From assembly GCA_003510435.1 (NCBI GenBank), contig DOMK01000020.1:59523-123522 (forward strand): a DNA stretch of 64,000 bases. Reading direction: 5' to 3'. Shown here in pieces: positions 3,951-64,000 of the stretch. Position 1 is the stretch's first letter. Each line of letters starts with the position of its first letter. Position numbers and translations under genes: made by a program. This stretch comes from Candidatus Magasanikiibacteriota bacterium (GTDB lineage Bacteria; Patescibacteriota; Patescibacteriia; Magasanikbacterales; UBA922). Below the pieces are notes generated by a model. That model saw nothing but the letters and a program-made list of their open reading frames with translations, was not told where the DNA came from and did not search any database.

Positions 3951-6062
3951 ATGATTGATTTTCAAAAAGAATTAAATTCAGAACAACTCAAAGTAGTACA
4001 AGACGGCAACGGCCCATGTTTAGTTTTGGCTGGAGCAGGAAGCGGAAAAACTAGAACAATTACTTATCGCGTGGCTTATTTATTAGAACAGGGTATAAAG
4101 TCAGAAAATATTTTACTAGTAACATTTACTAATAAAGCGGCGAGAGAGATGTTGGAAAGAGTGGAAAAATTAACAAGCAACCCACCCTCTGATCCCTCCC
4201 TTATAAAGGGAGGGAGGACTGTGTTACCGTGGGCGGGAACGTTTCACCATATTGGTTATAGATTATTAAAAAAGTACGCCACTTTAATTGGCCTGCCTGC
4301 GCAGGCAGGCTATAAAAATAATTTTTCTGTATTAGACAGTGAAGATAGTTTGGATTTAATTAAACTTTGTCTGAAAAGCGAAGGGATTGATCGGAAAGAA
4401 AAAAGATTTCCTTCTCCAGCCGTAGTCCAGGCAATTATTTCTTATGCCCGAAATTCTGAGACTACGATTGCTGATGTTTTGGATTTGAAGTATGAACATT
4501 TTTTATATATCAGTGAAATAATTGTCAGGATTGCTGAAGATTATCAAAAAAGAAAATTGGCGGCCAATGTTATGGATTTTGATGATTTGCTCGTGAATTG
4601 GTATATGTTACTTATTAAGGAACAAGGAGTAAGGAATAAGTTAAGTGAACAATTTGAGTATATTTTAGTTGACGAATATCAAGACACAAATAAAATTCAA
4701 GCTTCAATAATTAATTTACTAGCTTCTAAGCATAATAATTTATTGGTCGTAGGTGATGATGCTCAGAGTATTTATTCTTTTCGGGCAGCTGATATTCAAA
4801 ATATTTTAGCGTTTGAAAAAAAATACAGTCAAGCAAAAATTTTTAAACTGGAAACCAATTATCGATCTACGCCAGATATTTTAAATTTGGCCAATGATAT
4901 TATTGCTAATAATTTAAAACAATATGAAAAGAATTTAAAAGCCATTAACACTAATTTTACCAAGCCAGAATTGATTGCCTTTGCTAGCCAAGCCGAAGAA
5001 GCTCAATTTATTGTTCAGAGAATCAAAGAATTGGAAAGTGAAGGAATAGACCTAAATAAAATTGCCGTGTTATTTCGCGCGGCTTATCATTCCCAGGCTT
5101 TGGAAATGGAATTGGTGAAGCGAGGGATTGATTATGATTATCGCGGGGGAGTAAGATTTTTTGATCGGGCCCATGTCAAAGATGTTCTAGCCTATTTGCG
5201 GATTATAAATAATATTGCCGACGAGATAGCTTGGCGTCGAGTGCTTAATATGCAGATTGGAATTGGGCCAGCGAATGCGGATAAAATAATTGAAGGGATA
5301 CGAAATACGAAAAATTACGAAATTACGAACTACGAAAATATTTTTGATGGGATTGGCGCGCAATTGCCAGCCAAAGCGCAGGTGGGGTGGAATGATTTTT
5401 TACAAATCTATTCCGCCGTCGCTAAAGCTATGGCGGATAAAGAAAATATAGGAGATTTGATTTTATCACTATTGGATTCAAAATATGTAGAATATATAGA
5501 AAATGAATATCCAGATTATCGTGAACGTTTGGAAGATATAAAACAATTAGCACAATTTGCGAAAAATGAAACAGAGCTGGATAAATTTTTGGCTGAAGCT
5601 ACACTACAAGATAGTTTTAGGAATCCCGCACTTCAAATCAACTCCACATTAGAAAGTAGAAGGGGGAAGTTAATTTTATCTACGATTCATCAAGCAAAAG
5701 GACTTGAATGGGAAGCAGTGTTTGTATTGGGTTTGTCGGCCGGACAATTTCCGAATGATAGAGCTTTGCGTGAGCGTGATGGTGTAGAAGAAGAAAGGCG
5801 TTTGTTTTATGTAGCAGTCACTCGCGCTAAAAAATATTTATATCTTACATATTCATTTGGTGGTGGGTGGGGAGATTCTTTGGCTGGACCAAGTATGTTT
5901 ATTGATGAACTTAATAAAAAATTAGTGTCAGCTGAAGGTATGGGTGGTGGAAGTGTATTTGAAGATTTAGATAACGAAGCAGAATATATTGATGAAGATT
6001 CTCAAATTATAGATAGTAAAAAGTTTCCTGGGAGTTTTTTGAAAGATTTGGGTGAACTGTAA
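3951..6062 (+). CDS. uvrD: ATP-dependent DNA helicase, UvrD/PcrA family
   Basis: It has the Walker A motif 'GAGSGKT' and 'VDEYQDTN' (motif II). The C-terminal 'TIHQAKGLEW...YVAVTRA' completes the helicase motifs. Confidence 0.92.
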   Translation: MIDFQKELNSEQLKVVQDGNGPCLVLAGAGSGKTRTITYRVAYLLEQGIKSENILLVTFTNKAAREMLERVEKLTSNPPSDPSLIKGGRTVLPWAGTFHHIGYRLLKKYATLIGLPAQAGYKNNFSVLDSEDSLDLIKLCLKSEGIDRKEKRFPSPAVVQAIISYARNSETTIADVLDLKYEHFLYISEIIVRIAEDYQKRKLAANVMDFDDLLVNWYMLLIKEQGVRNKLSEQFEYILVDEYQDTNKIQASIINLLASKHNNLLVVGDDAQSIYSFRAADIQNILAFEKKYSQAKIFKLETNYRSTPDILNLANDIIANNLKQYEKNLKAINTNFTKPELIAFASQAEEAQFIVQRIKELESEGIDLNKIAVLFRAAYHSQALEMELVKRGIDYDYRGGVRFFDRAHVKDVLAYLRIINNIADEIAWRRVLNMQIGIGPANADKIIEGIRNTKNYEITNYENIFDGIGAQLPAKAQVGWNDFLQIYSAVAKAMADKENIGDLILSLLDSKYVEYIENEYPDYRERLEDIKQLAQFAKNETELDKFLAEATLQDSFRNPALQINSTLESRRGKLILSTIHQAKGLEWEAVFVLGLSAGQFPNDRALRERDGVEEERRLFYVAVTRAKKYLYLTYSFGGGWGDSLAGPSMFIDELNKKLVSAEGMGGGSVFEDLDNEAEYIDEDSQIIDSKKFPGSFLKDLGEL

Positions 6063-7926: not shown

Positions 7927-8338
7927 GTGAAGAGAAAATAATTTTTTAAATAAAAACAGCCTTTGTTAGGTTGTTTTTAAAATATAATTTTATTTATAGG
8001 GCGCAGAGATGGAGTGCTGCGCGTTATCACGACGCCGTGCAGGCCGGTAGCACAGCCTTAGCTGAGCTAGTCGGTTTGCATTGCAACACTCCATCGGACG
8101 CTTTCACGTCCTTGCCCTCCTTTGCGCGTCTAGTGCAGCTAAAAAGTATTGAAAGACGAGTGGGGGCGGTCAGACCCTCCTCATCTTTGTAACTTTTTAT
8201 TTGCATGCGCAATTTTTCATTTTCCCCCGTTCAGAAAAACTTGAGTCGGTGTTGCGTGAACTGGGTACTTGACTGCAAGTTTTTCGTTGGTTAACGAATG
8301 TTTGAGATATACCATTGTTTATGAATTTTGTCAATAGT

Positions 8339-9361: not shown

Positions 9362-9484
9362 CATGTCGGCTGTCGTTAATGGAGAACTCAGGGCGCACGT
9401 GGACATGCTCGCGGCACAGAACGAGGGACTGCGGTTTCTCATGAGCCAGTTTCACTGGCTGACCGCGTTCGAGCTCTGGCTCGC
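9362..9484 (+). CDS. GC-rich 40-aa ORF with a strong Shine-Dalgarno site (candidate foreign small gene)
   Basis: AGGAGG lies 6 nt upstream of the ATG. It encodes 'MSAVVNGELRAHVDMLAAQNEGLRFLMSQFHWLTAFELWLADR', and the codon third positions are GC-rich, unlike the host. Confidence 0.3.
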
Positions 9485-9611
9485 CGACCGGTGAGTCAGA
9501 AGCAGCGCGAGCTGCACGTGCGGGAGGGCTTCGCTACCCAACCCACGTATTATTTATTTTATAAAAAGTAAATAGTACGTGTGTGGGATGTTATCTTTGG
9601 AGGGAAAATGA

Positions 9612-10191: not shown

Positions 10192-10265
10192 GGACCCGTA
10201 GCTCAGTTGGTTAGAGCGCTACATTGACATTGTAGAGGTCAGAAGTTCAACTCTTCTCGGGTCTA
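10192..10265 (+). tRNA. tRNA-Val (anticodon GAC)
   Basis: It folds as a cloverleaf: GGACCCG acceptor, GCTC/GAGC D-stem, anticodon loop TTGACAT, T-loop TTCAACT. CCA is not encoded. Confidence 0.85.
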
Positions 10266-41313: not shown

Positions 41314-41357
41314 CACGAATCACGAAACACACAACACGAGACAAAACCCCACCCCAA

Positions 41358-41389
41358 CCCCTCCCCTTAAAAATGGGAGGGGCTTTTTA
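41358..41389 (+). terminator. rho-independent terminator after the ABC exporter
   Basis: A C-rich/G-rich 8-bp stem (ccccTcccc...ggggAgggg) is followed by cttttt. Confidence 0.6.
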
Positions 41390-41491
41390 ATTTAAGAGTA
41401 AAATGTTATAATATTTATATTATTCTTTATTCCCCGCCTGCAACGCTATCGCTTGCATTGCGGGCAGGCTTACTCCTTATTCCTTTTTATT

Positions 41492-48418: not shown

Positions 48419-48616
48419 ATGAAGGGATTCCTGCTGCGGTTTCTAGCCCTTCTGGCGATGATGTTCGTCGTCAGCGCCTGCGAGTCGGAGACGGGTTACA
48501 CCGTCTGCGAACAGCAGTGCGAGTCCAAGGGCGTGTCGTCCGAGGACTGGGACGAATGCATCGGAGGATGCGAGGCTGAGGCTGAGGTCGAAGCCAAGCG
48601 TTTTTCGGACATGTAG
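48419..48616 (+). CDS. GC-rich small Cys-rich lipoprotein-like peptide (65 aa)
   Basis: A perfect GAAGGAGG Shine-Dalgarno site is present. The signal peptide ends in lipobox 'VVSAC', followed by six further Cys. The GC-rich codon usage is foreign to the host. Confidence 0.45.
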   Translation: MKGFLLRFLALLAMMFVVSACESETGYTVCEQQCESKGVSSEDWDECIGGCEAEAEVEAKRFSDM

Positions 48617-55230: not shown

Positions 55231-58200
55231 ATGTCTGAAGAAGACAAAAAACGTGGTAAAGTTAGAAGAGATGGTAAGGTAATAGATGTTAAACCAACTC
55301 CGGGTGGTGATTTTGAATTATCTGCAGATAGAGAATCTGAGCTGCGAGTTGAATTGGAAAAATTGAAAAATGATCTGAAAGATAGAATCCCTGATATTGA
55401 CAGTGAAATATTAAAATTGCATGGTTCGTTAAATAGAGTAAAAACAGAAAAAAGTTTGGACTTATTTACTCAATTTAGTACTGCATTAAATGTATTAAGA
55501 CAGGAATTACGAAAGTTAGAACAAGAAATTTATGCAAATGAAATGATTGCAACTTATGAAAAAGATATTATTGCTTTGGATAAGAAATTAAAAAAACTAG
55601 CTAAACAAGTTGGCGTTAGTGCTTCTGAACTCATACTCAAATTAGCCAATACTAGTATTTCAGAACTAAAAAATGCTTTATTTCAAGTCGGTGATAAACC
55701 CGATGATCCTGATGTTGCAGGCCAGTTTGATGCCCTGCTTAGAAAAGCCAAAGAGTCAGTAAATGAAGCTATAAAGAAACAAAAGGAAAAAGGTGAATGG
55801 AAAGTAAATACTGATGAAGAAGTGAAAGCTATTTGGGAACAAGCTGAAACTAGAGATGCAAAGCAGGTTATAGCTTTGATCGGAGAAACTCAACAAACTT
55901 TGGAGAGAAATAAAAAAGACGGCGAAGGCAGACTAAATGGTGCAGAAAAAATTTCTGATATACAAGAAACCGTCATGACTCATGACGGTGATTTGGTTTA
56001 TCTACCAGAAAAAGGTCATGCCATTATTGTGGGTGACACCCATGGAGATGAAAGTTCTATTCAATCAATCTTAGTGGAAACAGATTTTATTGCGCGCGTA
56101 GAAAGACATGAACCAGTGTATTTAGTCTTTACTGGGGACTATGTTGATCGCGGGCCAAAGCAATTGGAAAATATTCAAGCGTTAATGGAATTGTATAATG
56201 AATATCCTGAGAATGTAATTTTGTTAAGAGGGAATCATGAACATGCTGGCTCACCTCAAATGCAAGATCCGGATTTATTTAATATAAAGGCCATGGATGC
56301 CTATGGCACTTTTGCAACAGAAATTAGAGATAAATACAACGAATTTTATGATAATTTGCCAATTAATTTAGTGACAAAGAAAGGCTTGTTGATCACCCAC
56401 GGCGGGATAGCAGAAGATCCTGAAGTAAAAAGAGCCGGAGATTTGACGAGATTAAGTAATGACCAGAAAATGCAAATGATGTGGACAGATCCAACAGAAA
56501 TTTCTGATGATTTTGTTTACATTCCCAAAAATAAAGATGGTGAGACAAAAAGTAGAGGTAGTTATGGTCAAGGCGATGATGAGAAAAAAGTTAAAAAATT
56601 TGGTAAAGGTGTTTTTGAAAAATCTTTACAAGCTGTTGGTGCCAAGGCTATGATGCGTTCACATCAGGCTGACGATAGTTTTAAAGATAATGGTTTTAAA
56701 AGACAATTTGGTGACAAATTAGTGACAGTATTTTCTACTACATCTGGACAGCGTGGTTACAAACCAGCCTATATGGAGGTAGATTTGAGTGCAGAATTAA
56801 CAGATTTTTCTACAGCTGATACGGCAGTGAACGGTCCAGTGCAACTAAGAAATGTTGGTGATACTAGACCACATTTGTTAAAAGATGAAGATTTGATAGA
56901 GTTGGAAGAAAGTGATGGAGTTTTGGGTGAAGATGACGAACCTCCAATAGTTAATACTCCACCAACTGAAGATGATCCAAAAAAATGGTGGAGATGGTTG
57001 TCTTTACATTATCATGTGGCTAAAACAAATAGTCATGAATTAAATTCAGCCATAAATACTTGTGGTGATAAAAATTTGGCTGGATTGAAAAGAATTTACG
57101 AAATAATTTTGGCTTGTGGAGACGATTTTGCCGAAGCTGGCAGACAAGCTTTGGAGTTTGCGCACAGCCTGCCTAAACCAGGTGTAGGTGAGAGTGGTGC
57201 AGATTCTTCTGATCATTTATCAGAGGATGACCAAAGTAAGTGGCAAGAAATAAAAGCTGTAAGTGGAGATGTAAAAATTGTAGATTGTTTACGCTTGTTT
57301 TCTAGTATAGAAAAAACTTATAAATTATTTACTTTATTTAAAAAAGATGGAAAAAGATTTTCTGATTTTGTGATCCAATGGGATAATCTTCCAGATCGTT
57401 CAGATATTAGTTTGGTAGTTGAAATGCTAGACAGTCATACAAAAAATCCTAAACTTTATTATGATGATCCTGATTCTAGATTAGAGATAGATGTTAGTAA
57501 TTTACAAGAGATGTTTGGTTCAATGGTTTTGTTTACTGAGTTTGCCCCGAGTGATTTGGACAGTCGGAAGAGATTTTGTGAAGAAATACCAAAAAAAGTA
57601 AATGATCTATATGAAAAAATATTTAGTCAGGCAGTAATTGATATACACGAAGTTGATTATGGTGTTCATGCTGTATCCGATCCAGCAGGAAATCTTAGAG
57701 TAAAAAATCAAGTCTTGCAAGAATTGAGTGCTGACATACTAAAAATTGATATAATTACTATTACATTTTTACATCAATTTCTTCTTCAGATGAATGAAAA
57801 GATTGGAAAAAATATTCAAGATGAGGGTGTTTATTATATGGAGGCAAACAAAAGAATTGAAGAGATTTTTAAAGATAAACGAGCAGATTTAGAGAAACTG
57901 AGGAAAAAAGTTGGAGGTGAGGAAGATGAAGCTGAAGCAAGATTGACAAAGCGAAAAGCTGAACTAGCCACGGCTTTGGGGGTGAGTTTCCCTAATCCAG
58001 CTGAAGTAAAACTTTTAGAAGATTTTCCTGATGATCGGGTTGATATTTTGGCACTGTTTTCTAAGGCTCTGGAAAGAGATTATACACAAATAAGAGCCTG
58101 GACAGAATTAAAAAATCATGAAAAGGTGAAAGATTTTTTTGCCTTAGGACAACTTATAGAAATCACTAAGGTTTGTGATGTTACCGCTGGTACAGCCCAT

Positions 58201-61200
58201 GCAAAAAAAGGCGCAGAATTTGCCAAAGTTTTTTTGAAAAGTTTTAAATCAGCGCAGAGTGCCTATGATGTTTTTATTTCTTTGAAAAAAAATGGAAATA
58301 GATTTATTGCCTTGGATTCACGTTGGCGTCATACTGATATTAGCAAAGAATCGCCAGATGATTGTGTAAAGACTATCGCTGATCTGAGTGAAGAATATCC
58401 TGGAGTGATGTCTAATTTGGAATTGATAAAGAAATTGCCTAGCAAAAAAAATCCAAAAGATTATATAGCCGAGATGATGGCTAGTATTGAAGCTAGATCA
58501 GTGGCATTTGTTGGTGATATAAAATCCAAGGTAGAAACAGAAGCTGACACTAATGCAAAGAGACGGTTGATTCATGATGCCTTGTCTAGATTTGAACGAG
58601 AAGGTTCTGACCTCATCTTGTTCATTACCAATTTGTCTGGACAGGTTAGAGAATTAATGGCTACGGCTGGAAGTGATGCTGGTAAGATAGAAGAGATTGA
58701 ACAATTGTCCACTGCTTTTTCAGATGAACAGAGGTTAAAATACCAGGCTAGAAAAAAAGAATTAGAACAAATGCTGGAGGATGTAAAAACTGAAGAAAAA
58801 ATTATTAGAGACTTTGGTACGGTGGAAGAATATAAGCGTTGGTCTGCTCTGCCGTTTGCTCATGGCAATTTTGATGATGCATTATTATTAAGAACCTGGA
58901 CCGGTGGAGATGCTGATGTGGCACAGGATTGGCAAGACAGATTTGGCGCAAAACTTGGTAATGACAGGCTTTTGTTTAGTGAAGCGCGTACTCTAGTCGG
59001 AAATGATATGACTGTTTTGGAACAATTGGTTGATGCTGTACCGGGAATAGAGAGTATGGCGCGGGTACCAGCTTTTGATGCTCTAAAAGCAGCTAAAGAA
59101 ACAAAAGATAGAGTAGCTTCAGCCGAAGTTTTACCCGGTCCAGAATTAGGAAAAAAATTAATAGAATATTTTAAGACACTTGCAGATGGCAGATTTTGTA
59201 ATTTTGGTTATAAAGAATTTGATGATGGCAATTTAACTGAATTGAAACAGCGGGTGGATTTTGTAGTTCAAAAAGTAGGGGTAATACCAGTAGACATAAT
59301 TTCTAAATTTGGTTTTGTGTGCAAAAAGTATCCTACTATTGTTGCAGATAGTGACAAGACTATTTTTCAAATCAGTATTCAAATAGATAATTGGAAAGAA
59401 GAATTTTTGAGGGTGTTAACTGTATATGAACAAGAAAATGAATATAAAGAAAAAAGAGAAGGGTTGGAAAATTTATGTATGAATATTTCCGAATATTCTG
59501 GTGGTCTTCACGTGTTAGGTGTTAAGGATGACGATGGCTATGTTGCTAGATTTAAATTACCTCTGGTTGAATTAGAGAGGAGAGCTAAACTTGTTAATGA
59601 TTTGTATCGTGCCAGCAGTTATAGTGGTTTTGTTCGTTTTACTAGTGATGATAGTAAACCAATTTGTCGTGATTGGATTCAGTTAAATATTGAGAGAAAT
59701 GACCTGGAGACAGAATTTTTGCGTTTGTTAAAAATTCAGGAACAAAGAGAACCGTTGAAAAGAGTTTGTGGAGATCATAGAATGGGAACACGAGGCGCTG
59801 GTGATTCACTTGGTCTGGATGATGATTTTGTACCAACTAAAAATCCAGATGAACAGGTAGCTGACTTTGGGCCTAAATTAGAAAAAATCCAGGCATATTT
59901 AAACGAAGCAAGAAGTGATCATATTGAAATAAGAATTTCTCGGGAATCAAAGGTGGTTGAAACTTTTGATCCAAAAGATGATTGGAGTGTTACTGTTATA
60001 AATCTAAATCTAGAAGATCCTAACTGGGAAAGGCAATTTTTTGCCTTGACTGGAATTGACCCAAAGATCAAAGAGAGTAAAGAAATTAAAAAACAAGAAT
60101 TAAAAATAAAGTATAGAGAAGATTATAGAAATGATAAACCAATATCACCGCCCACTACTGATCTAGAAAAAGAAGCCATGATAGAATTTTTATCTGCGCC
60201 AGATGTTGATGTTAGTGTAGTAATTAATCAGTCAATTCAAGACTGTAGGCAAATTCCAAATGAATTTTTTGATAGAACAAAAAAATGGTTTGAGTTTGGT
60301 AATGAAGAATATAGAAATATTCTGGTAAGTGCTGTTAGATATTGTTTATCCCCTGCAGAAGATGGTCATACAAAGCCAGAAAATTTTCTTTCGCCAACAG
60401 CATATCAGGATTTTTTTGTTAGTTTGAGTAAACTGTTGGGTGTGCCAGTAACGGGTGAATTTGAACTCAAGAATGATGATGGTTGGCGTGATCTAGATTA
60501 TTTGCTTCAACATCATGTTGATTGGAGCGAAAATAATGCTAAGACAAAATTGCTTTCTGTTTATGATGCACAGGGGTTTTTTAAAACAAGCAAAAAAGAA
60601 AGAAAGCAATTGTTAGATGGTTTACATAGTCGTCATGAGTCTTTGATTGCTACAGCGAAAAAAATAGATAGTACCAAATTTTTATATATCAGATTGAGAA
60701 AGATAGTAGATAATTTTACTTCTCACACTACTGGCAATCTCGATCTAAATGTTAATAAACTTGCAAAAGAAGAGTATAGCTTGAATTATGATTTGAGAGA
60801 TTTTTTTAATAAAAAATTACCTAAGGCTGGTAATACTGACGGACTTACTTTTTTGTTAACTAGCGGATGGAAAGGTTTTCAAGATAGGGCTGATGGAATA
60901 TCAATGGGTTTGGAAACAACACTTGCTTTCATGATTGAGGCAATGGAAGATAATGGTTTTTTGCCTCGCACTGGCAAACCTTATAAAAAAGAAGATTATA
61001 ATCCAGAATTATTATTGTTATATGAAAAATATCAAGAACTAAAAACTACTGGCAAAGTAGAAGATTTGGGTATGGCAGAAGCCGGCGCTGGTGGAGCATT
61101 AGAAGTTTTGGGTGGTGGTGATTCTGTTGACGACGCAGTTGGAGACGGAAGTGGAGCTAGAGAACCTGGACCAGATACACCCCGAGCTTCAGAATTTCAT

Positions 61201-63171
61201 GCAGTTCAAGGAGAGGGTTTGGAACAATTGTTCTCCCAATATGATTTTTCTATTTTAAAAGAAGTGATGACTGCTGACGCACAGAGAGGTAATGCTAAGA
61301 TGTATTTGTGGAGAAATAAAGGAAGTTTAGAACAGATGGTTCCTGGTGTACGCAATGCTTACAGAATTGGTGCCAAATTTAAACAGGCTTTTTTGTTTGC
61401 TAGACAATACGTAGAAAATCCTGACATTGATAGGGATTTTAATATTGTTATGCAAGAAGAGTTTGTTTTGGCCGGTGAAGTAAAAAGCATTATAGATAAT
61501 TTTGCTAATCATGTTAAGGACGAACCAAATGCGAAAAATTTAGTTGAAACTTTATTACCCCAGTTATATAAAAAGGCAAATAACATAATGGAAAAATTTA
61601 AAGTTTTAGCTCAAGAGATGGAAACTCTAATGGCGCAAGTAAATCTTACTGTGCCAGAAAATTTTCGAGTGGCTTCGGGAGATGGTATAGTGCCACCAGC
61701 AGATGGTAGTGATACTAGTGGTGATGATTTGCTAGGAGAAAATAAAAAAGCTAAAGGTGGCTTTAAGTGGTTCAAACGTATTGCTATTCCTTTAGGTCTT
61801 TTAGCTTCTGCATTTATGATAGACAAAGGAATTTCTACTGACAAAGAACCAGCTGAACCAGAAGGTACCCATCTAACTTCTACTGATTCTGATGAAAATA
61901 GTCAAGATATAATAGAGAGAGAAAAAAGAGCTGATGAATATAGAAATGCTGGCTTGTCGTCTGATGGTGAACCAACTAAGACAGAAGTACGAAAATATTC
62001 AGATTCAGATAAAATAAAAATAAAAGGATTTGAAAATTTGAAAGTAGTAAAAATTGAAAGTGGTCATTTTGAAGAAGATGGCTTGCCAGATGGTCAAAAA
62101 AATTATGTTGAGTTTGTAGATGGGGCTTATTTTAATGGCTCTATGGAACACGGACAATTTGTTTTTGGTACTTTTCGGGATTCTGGCCCAGAAGGTAAAT
62201 CACGTGAGTATTTTGGTGGTTTCAAAGATGGATTTTTTCATGGAAAAGCGAAAATAATTAATGAAGAAACAAAAGAAATAGAATATACTAGTTTTGATCA
62301 TGGTGTGAGAATGAAAGATTATGAGGATGAAAAAGAACAAAAAAGAGATAAAAATCCTGAATTATCAAAATATCAAACGCGAGAATATTCTGATTCAGAT
62401 GAAATAAAAATAAAAAGATTTGAAAATTGGAAAGTGACAAAAATTACTGGTACTTTTGACAAAGATGGTTTACCTCATGGCAGACCTACTAGGGTTGATT
62501 TTGAAGGTGGAGGTCAATTTTATGGTGAAATGGATCATGGTCAAATTGTCGGTGGTGGTGAACTCTGGTATCCTACTAATTCAGAAGGCAAAACAATTAG
62601 GTACTTGGGTGGTTTTACAGATGGACTACCACATGGAAAGGCAACTATTATTTATGAAGAAACACACACATCAGAATTGAGCCACTACACTCATGGTGTA
62701 AGAGATAAAGTTTATAAAAGTGAAGCTGAACAAGACGCTGATGATACTGATTATGACAATGAAAAAAAAGAAGATGGTGTGTTTAGAGCTGTGAAGACAT
62801 ACAAAGAATCTGTGCCAGTTTTTAAAGGTTTGCCAAAACATTTCCCCAAAGAAATATCTGGTTCATTTGATAAAGAAAATTTGCCTCATGGTCAGATTAA
62901 AATTATTTTTGAAAATGGTGATAGTTTTGATGGCATGGCAGAACATGGTAATTTAAAAAATGGCGAATGGAAATGGGCTGATGATACTGTATACAATGGT
63001 CCATTCAATAAAAATAACAAACCACATGGAGAAGGAAAATTAACTTTACCTCCCAATGGAATAGTAAAAGATGTGGTATTTGATAATGGTATTGTGATAA
63101 AGATTGGTGGCGTGGAAAAAAAACCAGTAAAAGAAAAAAAACCTAAACCAGGTAAAAAATGGACAAGATAG
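55231..63171 (+). CDS. giant (2646 aa) protein: N-terminal coiled coil, PPP-family calcineurin-like metallophosphatase domain, long alpha-helical region, predicted TM helix and three C-terminal MORN-like repeat modules
   Basis: Phosphatase motifs 'GDTHGD', 'GDYVDRG', 'RGNHE', 'THGG' and 'WTDP' are present. A TM helix reads 'IAIPLGLLASAFMI'. MORN-like units such as 'YFNGSMEHGQFVFG' and 'FDGMAEHGNLKNGEWKW' are tandemly triplicated. Confidence 0.85.
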   Translation: MSEEDKKRGKVRRDGKVIDVKPTPGGDFELSADRESELRVELEKLKNDLKDRIPDIDSEILKLHGSLNRVKTEKSLDLFTQFSTALNVLRQELRKLEQEIYANEMIATYEKDIIALDKKLKKLAKQVGVSASELILKLANTSISELKNALFQVGDKPDDPDVAGQFDALLRKAKESVNEAIKKQKEKGEWKVNTDEEVKAIWEQAETRDAKQVIALIGETQQTLERNKKDGEGRLNGAEKISDIQETVMTHDGDLVYLPEKGHAIIVGDTHGDESSIQSILVETDFIARVERHEPVYLVFTGDYVDRGPKQLENIQALMELYNEYPENVILLRGNHEHAGSPQMQDPDLFNIKAMDAYGTFATEIRDKYNEFYDNLPINLVTKKGLLITHGGIAEDPEVKRAGDLTRLSNDQKMQMMWTDPTEISDDFVYIPKNKDGETKSRGSYGQGDDEKKVKKFGKGVFEKSLQAVGAKAMMRSHQADDSFKDNGFKRQFGDKLVTVFSTTSGQRGYKPAYMEVDLSAELTDFSTADTAVNGPVQLRNVGDTRPHLLKDEDLIELEESDGVLGEDDEPPIVNTPPTEDDPKKWWRWLSLHYHVAKTNSHELNSAINTCGDKNLAGLKRIYEIILACGDDFAEAGRQALEFAHSLPKPGVGESGADSSDHLSEDDQSKWQEIKAVSGDVKIVDCLRLFSSIEKTYKLFTLFKKDGKRFSDFVIQWDNLPDRSDISLVVEMLDSHTKNPKLYYDDPDSRLEIDVSNLQEMFGSMVLFTEFAPSDLDSRKRFCEEIPKKVNDLYEKIFSQAVIDIHEVDYGVHAVSDPAGNLRVKNQVLQELSADILKIDIITITFLHQFLLQMNEKIGKNIQDEGVYYMEANKRIEEIFKDKRADLEKLRKKVGGEEDEAEARLTKRKAELATALGVSFPNPAEVKLLEDFPDDRVDILALFSKALERDYTQIRAWTELKNHEKVKDFFALGQLIEITKVCDVTAGTAHAKKGAEFAKVFLKSFKSAQSAYDVFISLKKNGNRFIALDSRWRHTDISKESPDDCVKTIADLSEEYPGVMSNLELIKKLPSKKNPKDYIAEMMASIEARSVAFVGDIKSKVETEADTNAKRRLIHDALSRFEREGSDLILFITNLSGQVRELMATAGSDAGKIEEIEQLSTAFSDEQRLKYQARKKELEQMLEDVKTEEKIIRDFGTVEEYKRWSALPFAHGNFDDALLLRTWTGGDADVAQDWQDRFGAKLGNDRLLFSEARTLVGNDMTVLEQLVDAVPGIESMARVPAFDALKAAKETKDRVASAEVLPGPELGKKLIEYFKTLADGRFCNFGYKEFDDGNLTELKQRVDFVVQKVGVIPVDIISKFGFVCKKYPTIVADSDKTIFQISIQIDNWKEEFLRVLTVYEQENEYKEKREGLENLCMNISEYSGGLHVLGVKDDDGYVARFKLPLVELERRAKLVNDLYRASSYSGFVRFTSDDSKPICRDWIQLNIERNDLETEFLRLLKIQEQREPLKRVCGDHRMGTRGAGDSLGLDDDFVPTKNPDEQVADFGPKLEKIQAYLNEARSDHIEIRISRESKVVETFDPKDDWSVTVINLNLEDPNWERQFFALTGIDPKIKESKEIKKQELKIKYREDYRNDKPISPPTTDLEKEAMIEFLSAPDVDVSVVINQSIQDCRQIPNEFFDRTKKWFEFGNEEYRNILVSAVRYCLSPAEDGHTKPENFLSPTAYQDFFVSLSKLLGVPVTGEFELKNDDGWRDLDYLLQHHVDWSENNAKTKLLSVYDAQGFFKTSKKERKQLLDGLHSRHESLIATAKKIDSTKFLYIRLRKIVDNFTSHTTGNLDLNVNKLAKEEYSLNYDLRDFFNKKLPKAGNTDGLTFLLTSGWKGFQDRADGISMGLETTLAFMIEAMEDNGFLPRTGKPYKKEDYNPELLLLYEKYQELKTTGKVEDLGMAEAGAGGALEVLGGGDSVDDAVGDGSGAREPGPDTPRASEFHAVQGEGLEQLFSQYDFSILKEVMTADAQRGNAKMYLWRNKGSLEQMVPGVRNAYRIGAKFKQAFLFARQYVENPDIDRDFNIVMQEEFVLAGEVKSIIDNFANHVKDEPNAKNLVETLLPQLYKKANNIMEKFKVLAQEMETLMAQVNLTVPENFRVASGDGIVPPADGSDTSGDDLLGENKKAKGGFKWFKRIAIPLGLLASAFMIDKGISTDKEPAEPEGTHLTSTDSDENSQDIIEREKRADEYRNAGLSSDGEPTKTEVRKYSDSDKIKIKGFENLKVVKIESGHFEEDGLPDGQKNYVEFVDGAYFNGSMEHGQFVFGTFRDSGPEGKSREYFGGFKDGFFHGKAKIINEETKEIEYTSFDHGVRMKDYEDEKEQKRDKNPELSKYQTREYSDSDEIKIKRFENWKVTKITGTFDKDGLPHGRPTRVDFEGGGQFYGEMDHGQIVGGGELWYPTNSEGKTIRYLGGFTDGLPHGKATIIYEETHTSELSHYTHGVRDKVYKSEAEQDADDTDYDNEKKEDGVFRAVKTYKESVPVFKGLPKHFPKEISGSFDKENLPHGQIKIIFENGDSFDGMAEHGNLKNGEWKWADDTVYNGPFNKNNKPHGEGKLTLPPNGIVKDVVFDNGIVIKIGGVEKKPVKEKKPKPGKKWTR

Positions 63172-63187
63172 AATATAATTAAATCTT

Positions 63188-63220
63188 AAAAAATGGCTTA
63201 TCTAAGCCATTTTTTGTTTG
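63188..63220 (+). terminator. terminator after the giant gene (aatggctta tc taagccatt plus T-run)
   Basis: A 9-bp stem is followed by ttttttg. Confidence 0.65.
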
Positions 63221-63257
63221 ATTTATAGGCTGTTAATAAACAATGCTGTCTAAGGTC

Positions 63258-63287
63258 TTGACATATTAGCAAAAATATGGTATATTA
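63258..63287 (+). promoter_or_regulatory. promoter TTGACA, 17 bp, TATATT facing the GC-rich structured segment at the window end
   Basis: The -35 is consensus with a reasonable -10. No CDS follows. Confidence 0.45.
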
Positions 63288-64000
63288 CTCTGTCATATTT
63301 GATATATGATTAAGATGGGTAAAGTGTGCCCAATTTGGCTAAAACTAGCGGATAAGTGTGAATAAGAACAATAAAAGTGCTAACTTTTGCGATCTGTATA
63401 TATAAATATATAACAAGTCTTTCTCAGAGATTGTCATGATATGGAAAAATGATGATTTGTGAAAGAAGATTTGTGGCTAGATCATTACAATTCAAAAACA
63501 TAAAAATAAAAGTATAAATATTATTCTTTCCTTTTGCTGTGCAAAAGCGAGTCTTTGGCTCGGTAGGTATTGTTTTTACTCATCCCCCTAACCCCTTCTC
63601 TACAAAGTAGAGAAGGGGAGAATAGATTAAAACGTTTCCCCCTCTCTTACTGAAAGAGAGGGGGAACAAGGGGGTGAGTTAAGAAACAAAACCCGCCGAG
63701 CCATACCTGTGGCTCGCGAGACAATGTTTCCCTTTCTCGATGACTAGTGGTCGTTGAGCGAGGGTAGAGATATGGTACCGGTTTTCTGTATCGTTTCTCA
63801 GCAACCCGTCTTCGGGCGGGTGAAAGGTTGGTGAGCCGTGAAGACGGCTCGGAAGTTGGCCACGAGCTTGTTCGTGGTATTGCTGGGTCTCGCTCACGAG
63901 ACGAATGCTTTCGGGCAGGAGTCCTTCGTGAGTGCCCCGCGCGGAGGGATGCCGTCTGAGGCGGATCTTCGCGGGGGGGCCATTGAAGCCCTCGAGGCTT

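Follow-up and report, generated by a model that had tools for sequence, protein, structure and literature searches.

What kind of sequence occupies the end of a 64,000-nt stretch of DNA (hereafter the window) from a groundwater Candidatus Magasanikbacteria (Patescibacteria, or Candidate Phyla Radiation, CPR), a genome of about 35% GC, where positions 63540-64000 turn GC-rich and are crowded with stems? An earlier note on this DNA had proposed either the 5' part of a large structured RNA or the edge of a foreign island. We consider it likely that the region is instead the front of a two-gene operon for envelope proteins, whose structured leader has been invaded by an element resembling REPINs (hairpin-forming doublets of repetitive extragenic palindromic, or REP, sequences) and MITEs (miniature transposable elements with inverted repeats). 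Each of these components is of a known kind, and the region as flagged is mostly ordinary, made up of coding sequence, a structured leader and an inserted palindromic repeat.

Stems, promoter and reading frames at the end of the window

The region is marked by two perfect hairpins in tandem, CCCCTTCTCTAC-aaa-GTAGAGAAGGGG with 12 bp at 63592-63618 and TTCCCCCTCTCTT-actga-AAGAGAGGGGGAA with 13 bp at 63636-63666, the second with a loop of 5 nt and not of 6 as first described. Both lie far beyond chance: a perfect stem of 12 bp or more is contained in 0/2000 dinucleotide shuffles of 63540-64000, and the whole window has six such stems against 0.05 expected. Every further stem that had been listed was found at its place on the plus strand, namely CGAGCCA/TGGCTCG (loop tacctg) at 63697-63716, a C(UUCG)G hairpin at 63804-63821, GAGCCGT/ACGGCTC at 63833-63850, CCACGA/TCGTGG at 63860-63877 and GTCTCG/CGAGAC at 63887-63902, and 63690-64000 holds four perfect short-loop stems of at least 6 bp against 0.39 expected, a count reached by 0/1000 shuffles. 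The estimate of about 60% GC applies to 63690-64000 (59%) and not to 63540-64000 (54%), in a window that averages about 35%.

Upstream of the stems, the consensus promoter reported at 63258 is present as a sigma-70-type, host-like TTGACA-17-TATATT with an extended TG and 11 of 12 matches (63258-63286, plus strand), and it reads towards the GC-rich genes. The leader that would run from it to the first gene measures about 550 nt, beginning with an AT-rich part (63259-63512, plus strand) and becoming GC-rich and highly structured in its distal part. The region was originally described as lacking a credible open reading frame (ORF), which is incorrect: one that encodes a signal peptide (ORF-A) starts at a GTG at 63838 on the plus strand, places its first 54 codons in the window (63838-64000; signal peptide MKTARKLATSLFVVLLGLAHETNAFG) and runs past the window's end, which is why the program-made ORF list missed it. 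The last two stems listed above lie inside its signal-peptide codons.

The sequence beyond the window was taken from a 53-kb Joint Genome Institute (JGI) contig, L001, that matches the window at every one of the 18,770 bases they share and extends 9 kb further (L001 coordinates equal window coordinates minus 45230); the sequence of this genome examined for repeats thus comes to 73 kb. ORF-A spans L001 18608-19666 and encodes 352 aa ending ...LRLLFRF. A second gene, ORF-B, follows from a probable TTG start at L001 19923 to 21425, is cysteine-rich, carries the lipobox LVGC and matches Pfam TSP_3 (PF02412) with 30.8 bits against a curated cut-off of 25 (E 2e-7); its product is a predicted lipoprotein with thrombospondin type 3 (TSP3) repeats. 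Long minus-strand ORFs are sometimes chosen here by gene callers. The question of strand is settled by comparison with L004, a 91%-identical variant contig, against which the plus-strand genes have ratios of nonsynonymous to synonymous divergence (dN/dS) of 0.22 (ORF-A) and 0.35 (ORF-B), and in which the overlapping minus-strand ORF is interrupted by stop codons. A metagenome scan for further variants with a 23-mer from the leader recovered only L004.

ORF-A is a near-orphan in a word-indexed search of 5.8 billion proteins, and an exhaustive search with HMMER against 1.84 billion representatives brought up P0244 (E 6e-50), which is homologous in the C-terminal domain. It falls into three parts: an N-terminal region common to P0291, a CWDLNGDG-type motif that is widely repeated, and a C-terminal domain of about 150 aa common to P0244 and P0294. 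P0244 itself has a weak, sub-threshold OmpA match. The product of ORF-A is predicted to be a secreted protein with a weakly OmpA-like N-terminal region and a beta-rich C-terminal domain ending ...LFRF. The aromatic C-terminus (...LRLLFRF) would suit an outer-membrane beta-barrel, in an organism that presumably lacks an outer membrane, yet ORF-A has no Pfam match, and its profile searched against the PDB gave a pilin as best match at E 0.18. ORF-A matched no PHROGs (phage) or PADLOC (defence) family, and neither of the two ORFs encodes a DNA-mobility enzyme.

An element inserted into a conserved leader hairpin

The two perfect hairpins belong to a strand-neutral element of 108 nt at 63574-63681, in which an outer stem, ACTCATCCCCC/GGGGGTGAGT, encloses both of them and makes the element's ends inverted repeats. 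Folded as single-stranded DNA, 63556-63703 forms a long outer stem bearing the two hairpins at -51.6 kcal/mol, with z = -9.4 for the region 63545-63735; as RNA the fold of the element reaches z = -14. A scan of one genome per species for CCCCTAACCCCTT-N8-38-AAGGGGA found at least 120 loci (L007-L125, e.g. L033 4361-5195 and L050 2400-3000). Among the matches listed, the hosts are Nostocales, the group richest in the family, and other cyanobacteria, metagenome-assembled genomes (MAGs) of a 'delta proteobacterium' and of Binatus (Binatia), Armatimonadota, Chloroflexota, Bacteroidales, Latescibacterota, Patescibacteria and others, and one MAG supplies at least eight loci. Many copies share the architecture of the window, with ...CTCAT-CCCCTAACCCC-TTCTCCC-loop-GGGAGAA-GGGGA in the 5' part, then a spacer, and CCCCTCTCCC-loop-GGGAGAGGGG followed by GGGGGTGAG... 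in the 3' part. The family has no Rfam entry, and a literature search by sequence string gave no paper with its sequence. In the Binatus and 'delta proteobacterium' MAGs the family consists mostly of single hairpins after a telomere-like AACCTAA-CCCCTAA-CCCC run, and Calothrix has two complete elements, each about 170 nt long, inverted around a 350-nt core, a MITE-like arrangement.

A covariance model (R1) was made from an alignment of 22 elements taken exclusively from other phyla and organisms. Its consensus is a three-way junction whose outer stem covaries, being CCC/GGG in cyanobacteria and AAC/GTT in AT-rich hosts, and it matches 63574-63681 with 58.3 bits (E ~4e-16) on the plus strand and 48.9 bits on the minus strand; both strands match because the element is nearly symmetric. 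Across the 73 kb R1 finds two clear copies and one or two weak ones. The second clear copy is inverted and degenerate (L001 21773-21904, minus strand, 27.3 bits) and stands immediately beyond the 3' end of the GC-rich region, which is roughly 3.5 kb long. Over the 73 kb there are exactly two occurrences of the 13-mer CCCCTAACCCCTT, one here and one, inverted, at L001 21882-21894. A weak R1 match at 41344-41474 (14 bits, E 0.09) adjoins a GC-rich palindromic patch at 41430-41477 and may be a further, degenerate copy.

That the element is an insertion follows from L135, the contig of P0244, which carries a homologous operon: an ORF-A homologue (52% identity over 170 aa), an ORF-B-like next gene (38% identity over 129 aa, E 4e-22) and, upstream, a sigma-70-type promoter homologous to that of the window. 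The AT-rich leaders are homologous as well (nhmmer, window 63259-63512 against L135 7263-7523, E 4e-7), and L135 keeps the three-segment arrangement TGGCTC(A/G)G ... CCGAGCCA-loop-TGGCTCG. Once the element's 108 nt are taken out, the window aligns with L135 and both fold at this place as a long hairpin, so that L135, whose leader hairpin lacks the element, is an empty-site homologue; filled and empty site are here compared between divergent species, not strains. The element thus occupies the apex of a leader hairpin that predates it, of which the window retains the 5' arm, TGGCTCGG..., at 63556-63573 and the 3' arm, ...CCGAGCCA, at 63682-63703 (both plus strand). The last 7 nt of the 3' arm can pair instead with 63710-63716, and for the CCGAGCCA segment the long leader hairpin has a competitor in the hairpin at 63697-63716. 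The related loci L131-L135 were found to carry no copy of the element.

In a search for a mobilizing gene, clustering of 1433 ORFs within 1.2 kb of family copies gave a best protein family present at 6/120 loci, and a REP-associated tyrosine transposase (RAYT, a Y1 transposase) was neither found beside family copies nor called in L001, whole genomes not having been searched. There is no convincing target-site duplication or extended terminal repeat around the element; beyond the element and the TTGTTTTTA stretch there is a weak 19-nt direct repeat (15/19) in AT-rich DNA, which we judge to be chance. We propose that the element would be selfish, non-autonomous mobile DNA of the REPIN/MITE kind, that its targets are probably single-stranded DNA or the loops of hairpins, and that it may be tolerated here because it would only lengthen an existing stem. 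Very small dispersed repeats of cyanobacteria reportedly insert into existing hairpins in Nostocales, as Elhai and colleagues are said to have described in 2008.

Related palindromes also occur within a gene of the window. The PcrA/UvrD-like helicase gene at 3951-6062 has two short in-frame insertions relative to PcrA (PDB 1pjr), both at GC-rich palindromes: 11 aa (SNPPSDPSLIK) at 4176-4240, where the hairpin TCCCTCCCTT-ata-AAGGGAGGGA gives a weak R1 match (E 0.008), and 6 aa (LPAQAG) at 4291-4310, at GCCTGCCTGCGCAGGCAGGC. In the GC-rich block's right flank, at L001 21753-21772, the LPAQAG palindrome is found again, with two mismatches.

Structure of the leader and the start codon

While the note's large RNA did not survive, a weaker form of its structural idea is partly supported, in that the mRNA leader and the first codons are predicted to be structured, with some hairpins apparently kept by compensatory changes. 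The GC-rich proximal leader (63704-63837, plus strand) includes a hairpin at 63736-63758 and the C(UUCG)G hairpin, 3' of which lies a Shine-Dalgarno-like AAAGG (63823-63827, plus strand); next comes the start-codon hairpin GAGCCGU-GAAG-ACGGCUC (63833-63850, plus strand), enclosing the GTG at 63838-63840. The RNA fold of 63690-63900 has z = -5.2, and z for the leader is about -5, as against mostly -0.3 to -4 in coding-sequence windows. The proximal leader is 90% identical to that of L004, compared with a synonymous divergence (dS) of 0.38 for ORF-A; around the stretch between ORF-A and ORF-B the flanking genes range from 0.38 to 0.55. In the consensus fold of window and L004, 57 pairs are formed, of which none is broken, seven are changed on one side and three on both.

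Folded separately, the window, L004 and L135 each give a hairpin before the Shine-Dalgarno sequence and one at the start codon. The former is CCCGUC-UUCG-GGCGGG in the window and CCCUGU-GAAAA-ACAGGG in L135, and the latter is GAGCCGU/ACGGCUC in the window, GGGGCA/UGCCCC in L004 and GGGGCAA/UUGCCCC in L135. Such compensatory change at the start-codon hairpin suggests a role in the control of translation initiation or in mRNA stability. We propose that the stems remaining outside the element would likewise be mRNA structure.

A second candidate for RNA structure lies between the two genes. The first 200 nt of the intergenic region (L001 19667-19866) are 93% identical to L004 and contain competing hairpins, GGCGG...CCGCC against TCCAATCT...AGATTGGA; there is no Rfam match, and the stretch may be a second regulatory RNA element. 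A viral scan with a conserved intergenic 24-mer gave no match. At its other end the GC-rich block has a non-coding 3' tail (L001 21430-21700) of GC about 0.5, with fold z of -4 to -5.2 and no Rfam match; a motif at the end of this tail, AGAGTATATA(T)AA(C/T)AC, is common to the corresponding place in L131.

The GC-rich block and its relatives

Over L001 18300-21900 (about 3.5 kb) GC rises from about 0.30 to 0.55-0.69 and then falls back. GC at third codon positions (GC3) is 0.73 in ORF-A and 0.87 in ORF-B, against 0.21 in the giant gene upstream and 0.30 in wzy downstream. The jump in composition bears out half of the proposal that this is the edge of a foreign island. That it is foreign is doubtful, since GC-rich homologues occupy the same locus in divergent relatives.

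Four of these relatives were reached through the Wzy_C protein (L131-L134), and all have GC-elevated genes directly upstream of wzy. In L131 (Wzy identity 55%) there is a TSP3 protein that is a homologue of ORF-B including the C-terminal domain (E 2e-15), the genes having GC 0.58-0.62 and GC3 0.81 and the wzy region an overall GC of about 0.32. L132 and L133 (Wzy identity 43%) have a 4-kb block with GC3 0.81-0.87 between flanks of GC3 0.28-0.40, encoding a zinc-ribbon protein, a 207-aa signal-peptide protein ending NIGWRF and a cysteine-rich lipoprotein; the C-terminal domain of ORF-B has marginal similarity to L132 (E 0.003). In L134 (Wzy identity 39%) a 315-aa secreted protein ending ITPF accompanies a TSP3 lipoprotein, at GC3 0.48-0.52 against a flanking 0.23. 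L135, reached through P0244, has no wzy on its contig; its operon has GC3 0.70 and 0.84 against a flanking 0.41 and a host GC of about 0.40, and the leader hairpin at which its GC jumps is the one where the window's does. The composition border therefore falls within a transcription unit that is shared by loci whose proteins are only 38-52% identical.

Taken together, GC-rich genes at the same locus in relatives and a border that in L135 also lies within the unit make a recent one-off transfer of the block unlikely. Over such distances neutral decay to host composition should erase the GC signal of transferred DNA, as we infer from the saturation of synonymous divergence. There are thus two possibilities: the whole unit may travel between genomes of this kind with its composition intact, or selection or a local conversion bias may maintain that composition. 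In the scheme proposed here the high GC would be a conserved property of the gene set, as opposed to the trace left by some recent insertion. It is tempting to speculate further that extreme GC-richness (GC3 0.7-0.87) is actively maintained in these AT-rich Patescibacteria (GC3 0.2-0.4) across deep divergence, with its border inside a conserved transcription unit, an idea that we hold tentatively and with rather more doubt than belief. As a cause, selection might act on mRNA structure, or on the use of rare codons in genes for secreted, cysteine-rich envelope proteins; alternatively, the surface-polysaccharide locus could contain a recombination hot spot with very local GC-biased gene conversion.

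If the GC-rich pair is indeed maintained and not imported, these AT-rich genomes of reduced, symbiotic bacteria would offer a clean natural case for the study of local base composition, one that would set selection on mRNA structure or codons against biased gene conversion. For the element family, whose core is nearly the same from phylum to phylum, one may ask what moves it. Both this palindrome family and the GC-rich operon conserved in AT-rich Patescibacteria merit systematic study.

Another GC-rich gene for a secreted protein lies in AT-rich surroundings at 48419-48616 (plus strand): a 65-aa cysteine-rich lipoprotein (MKGFLLRFLALLAMMFVVSAC...; GC 0.59, GC3 0.78), with an upstream promoter much like the one at 63258 (TTGACA...AAATATGGTATTTT). 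Being a GC-rich secreted-protein gene in an AT-rich genome, it fits the pattern of maintained GC. Short GC-rich patches (GC of at least 0.6 over 63-175 nt) also occur at 9380-9554 and 7998-8077, just upstream of tRNA genes at 10192 and 10352; only short ORFs overlap them, and neither has an Rfam match at gathering thresholds.

Alternative explanations

The idea of a large non-coding structured RNA (a ribozyme, RNase P, a group I or II intron, or a retron msr/msd) took its strength from a density of stems and fold z-scores that are indeed well above chance. The two strongest hairpins have turned out to be members of a dispersed repeat family, and the sequence downstream codes for protein under purifying selection. 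Searches with Rfam 15 covered the whole window, the 63540 region and the extended locus, and no family reaches its gathering threshold in the region; models of RNase P, group I and II introns and retrons find no match at E up to 10 in 63100-64000 or at E up to 1 in L001 17900-22200, and matches of the long palindrome to miRNA- and snoRNA-type families fall far under gathering scores and were dismissed as spurious. The reverse transcriptase that was to be sought downstream is likewise missing, and no intron-encoded protein occurs among the downstream ORFs, where the secreted protein and the TSP3 lipoprotein stand instead. An ordinary GC-rich coding sequence in a frame not obvious from the window, which the earlier note had itself named as evidence contrary to its reading, is what the extension revealed, and these downstream GC-rich genes refute the large-RNA, intron and retron readings; we give them next to no credence. 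Just as improbable is an assembly chimera or a contaminant fused to a Magasanikbacteria contig. Most assemblies do break inside ORF-B, near L001 20300-20440, and these breaks are accounted for by an internal repeat: the tail of L002 jumps from L001 20431 to 20272, a unit of 159 nt (53 codons) in the cysteine-rich part of ORF-B, so that the contig loops back on itself, as might be expected if copy number varies or is ambiguous in the population. Assemblies from JGI, ENA and Logan have an identical left junction, and their contigs all encode the 2646-aa protein ending at 63171. The right junction (the 3' end of ORF-B, its flank and wzy) occurs in L001 and also in other groundwater assemblies, among them L128 and L129, which also hold the right-hand hairpin element, and in the NCBI MAG (Candidatus Magasanikbacteria) a partial ORF-B (DEB09_05405) adjoins a Wzy_C gene (DEB09_05400). 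A single contig covers the whole region, and related species have the same arrangement.

A more serious contender is a composite island, in which the 3.5-kb block would be a recent horizontal acquisition from a high-GC donor (e.g. Myxococcota-like), bounded by two inverted double-hairpin elements. The sharp GC jump from 0.30 to 0.55-0.69 would fit, as would the exact 13-mer found twice in 73 kb, once per edge and inverted, the near-orphan status of ORF-A among 5.8 billion proteins and a weak similarity of ORF-B to myxobacterial MtsC in the TSP3-repeat region. GC differences between flanks point the same way at this locus, which with 0.27-0.30 is the largest and an outlier among 93 family copies; their median is 0.04, for which reason elements as general borders of compositional islands were rejected. 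Against an island stands L135, which shares the promoter and an AT-rich leader running straight into the GC-rich part and has no element. The left element lies within a conserved leader and not at an edge, the relatives hold GC-rich analogous genes at the same locus without it, and no integrase, transposase or target-site duplication was found; moreover, the hosts in which the outer-stem variant AACTCAT/GTGAGTT is seen are AT-rich and not GC-rich. On balance we regard such an acquisition as unlikely. It is doubtful, too, that the double hairpins are functional parts of the locus, serving as mRNA stabilizers, transcriptional insulators or terminators, or protein-binding sites. REP sequences and bacterial interspersed mosaic elements (BIMEs) have roles of this kind; the structures here are very stable (z -9 to -14), the family sequence is conserved across phyla with a covarying outer stem, and family copies often lie just downstream of genes. 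As an intrinsic terminator the element would be poor, since on the plus strand neither perfect hairpin is followed by a T run (hairpin 2 gives a weak minus-strand match). Nor do L131-L134 or the homologous leader of L135 contain it, and the related palindrome in frame in the helicase gene looks like mobility, not function.

The structured leader and inserted element ahead of an envelope-protein operon is thus the reading we prefer, and several points weigh against it. The covariation comes from three sequences only, and RNAalifold, by the way it is built, prefers pairs compatible with both sequences of an alignment. For the element, neither a transposase nor a RAYT nor a target-site duplication was found, and its only two clear copies in 73 kb both flank the GC-rich region, so that they may have a role in moving or bounding that region. 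The fold and cell location of ORF-A are guesses, an AlphaFold2 model from a two-sequence alignment being unusable at a predicted local distance difference test score (pLDDT) of 35, and its homology with the outer-membrane-protein-like proteins of L132 and L134 is not detectable, BLASTP giving no significant similarity. Finally, the transcription start, read-through of the element and the regulatory role of the hairpins are all inferred from sequence.

Neighbouring genes

On the left, the GC-rich operon follows a giant gene for 2646 aa (55231-63171, plus strand) with a Metallophos domain and repeated C-terminal modules; a 1679-aa counterpart stands at the same position in L132, and none in L134. 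The giant gene ends in an intrinsic-terminator-like hairpin with a T run, AAAAAATGGCTT-atct-AAGCCATTTTTT (63187-63216, plus strand). The wider context consists of Wzz and the giant Metallophos protein on one side and a cluster of wzy, glycosyltransferase and radical-SAM genes on the other, and a role of the locus at the cell surface is a reasonable guess.

Comparison with known systems

Compared with genomic islands, the block has the strongly atypical composition, the sharp borders and a cargo of surface proteins. It differs in having no integrase, tRNA target or direct repeat (a tmRNA gene lies 12 kb away) and in not being absent from relatives, which have GC-rich homologous or analogous genes at the same position. 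The leader, for its part, is similar to those that occlude the start codon in the manner of an RNA thermometer or a translational-control hairpin, with a start-codon hairpin and a hairpin just upstream of the Shine-Dalgarno sequence in three homologues, although the Shine-Dalgarno sequence here is not clearly sequestered and no known family matches.

As for the element, it is small, non-coding, palindromic and inserted, like a MITE (review, PMC10969869), but it has no identified target-site duplication or parent insertion sequence, and its 108 nt place it at the small end of the MITE size range. The palindromes in frame in the PcrA/UvrD-like gene recall the Rickettsia palindromic elements, which lie in Rickettsia genes in the same way. 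A parallel may also be drawn with REPINs, REP doublets that form hairpins and fold as one long hairpin or as a clover (Bertels & Rainey 2011, PMC3116915). No RAYT was found near family copies, the element is unrelated to the published Nostoc REP gttgggtttcgttcctcaacccaac (PMC3116915), its copy number in this genome appears low (two clear copies in 73 kb), and its core is common to many phyla, whereas REPIN families are usually lineage-specific. What it has in common with REPINs is the design itself: two short inverted palindromic units around a spacer, able to fold as a long hairpin or as a clover with an outer stem, in copies that are dispersed, mostly outside genes, over many genomes.

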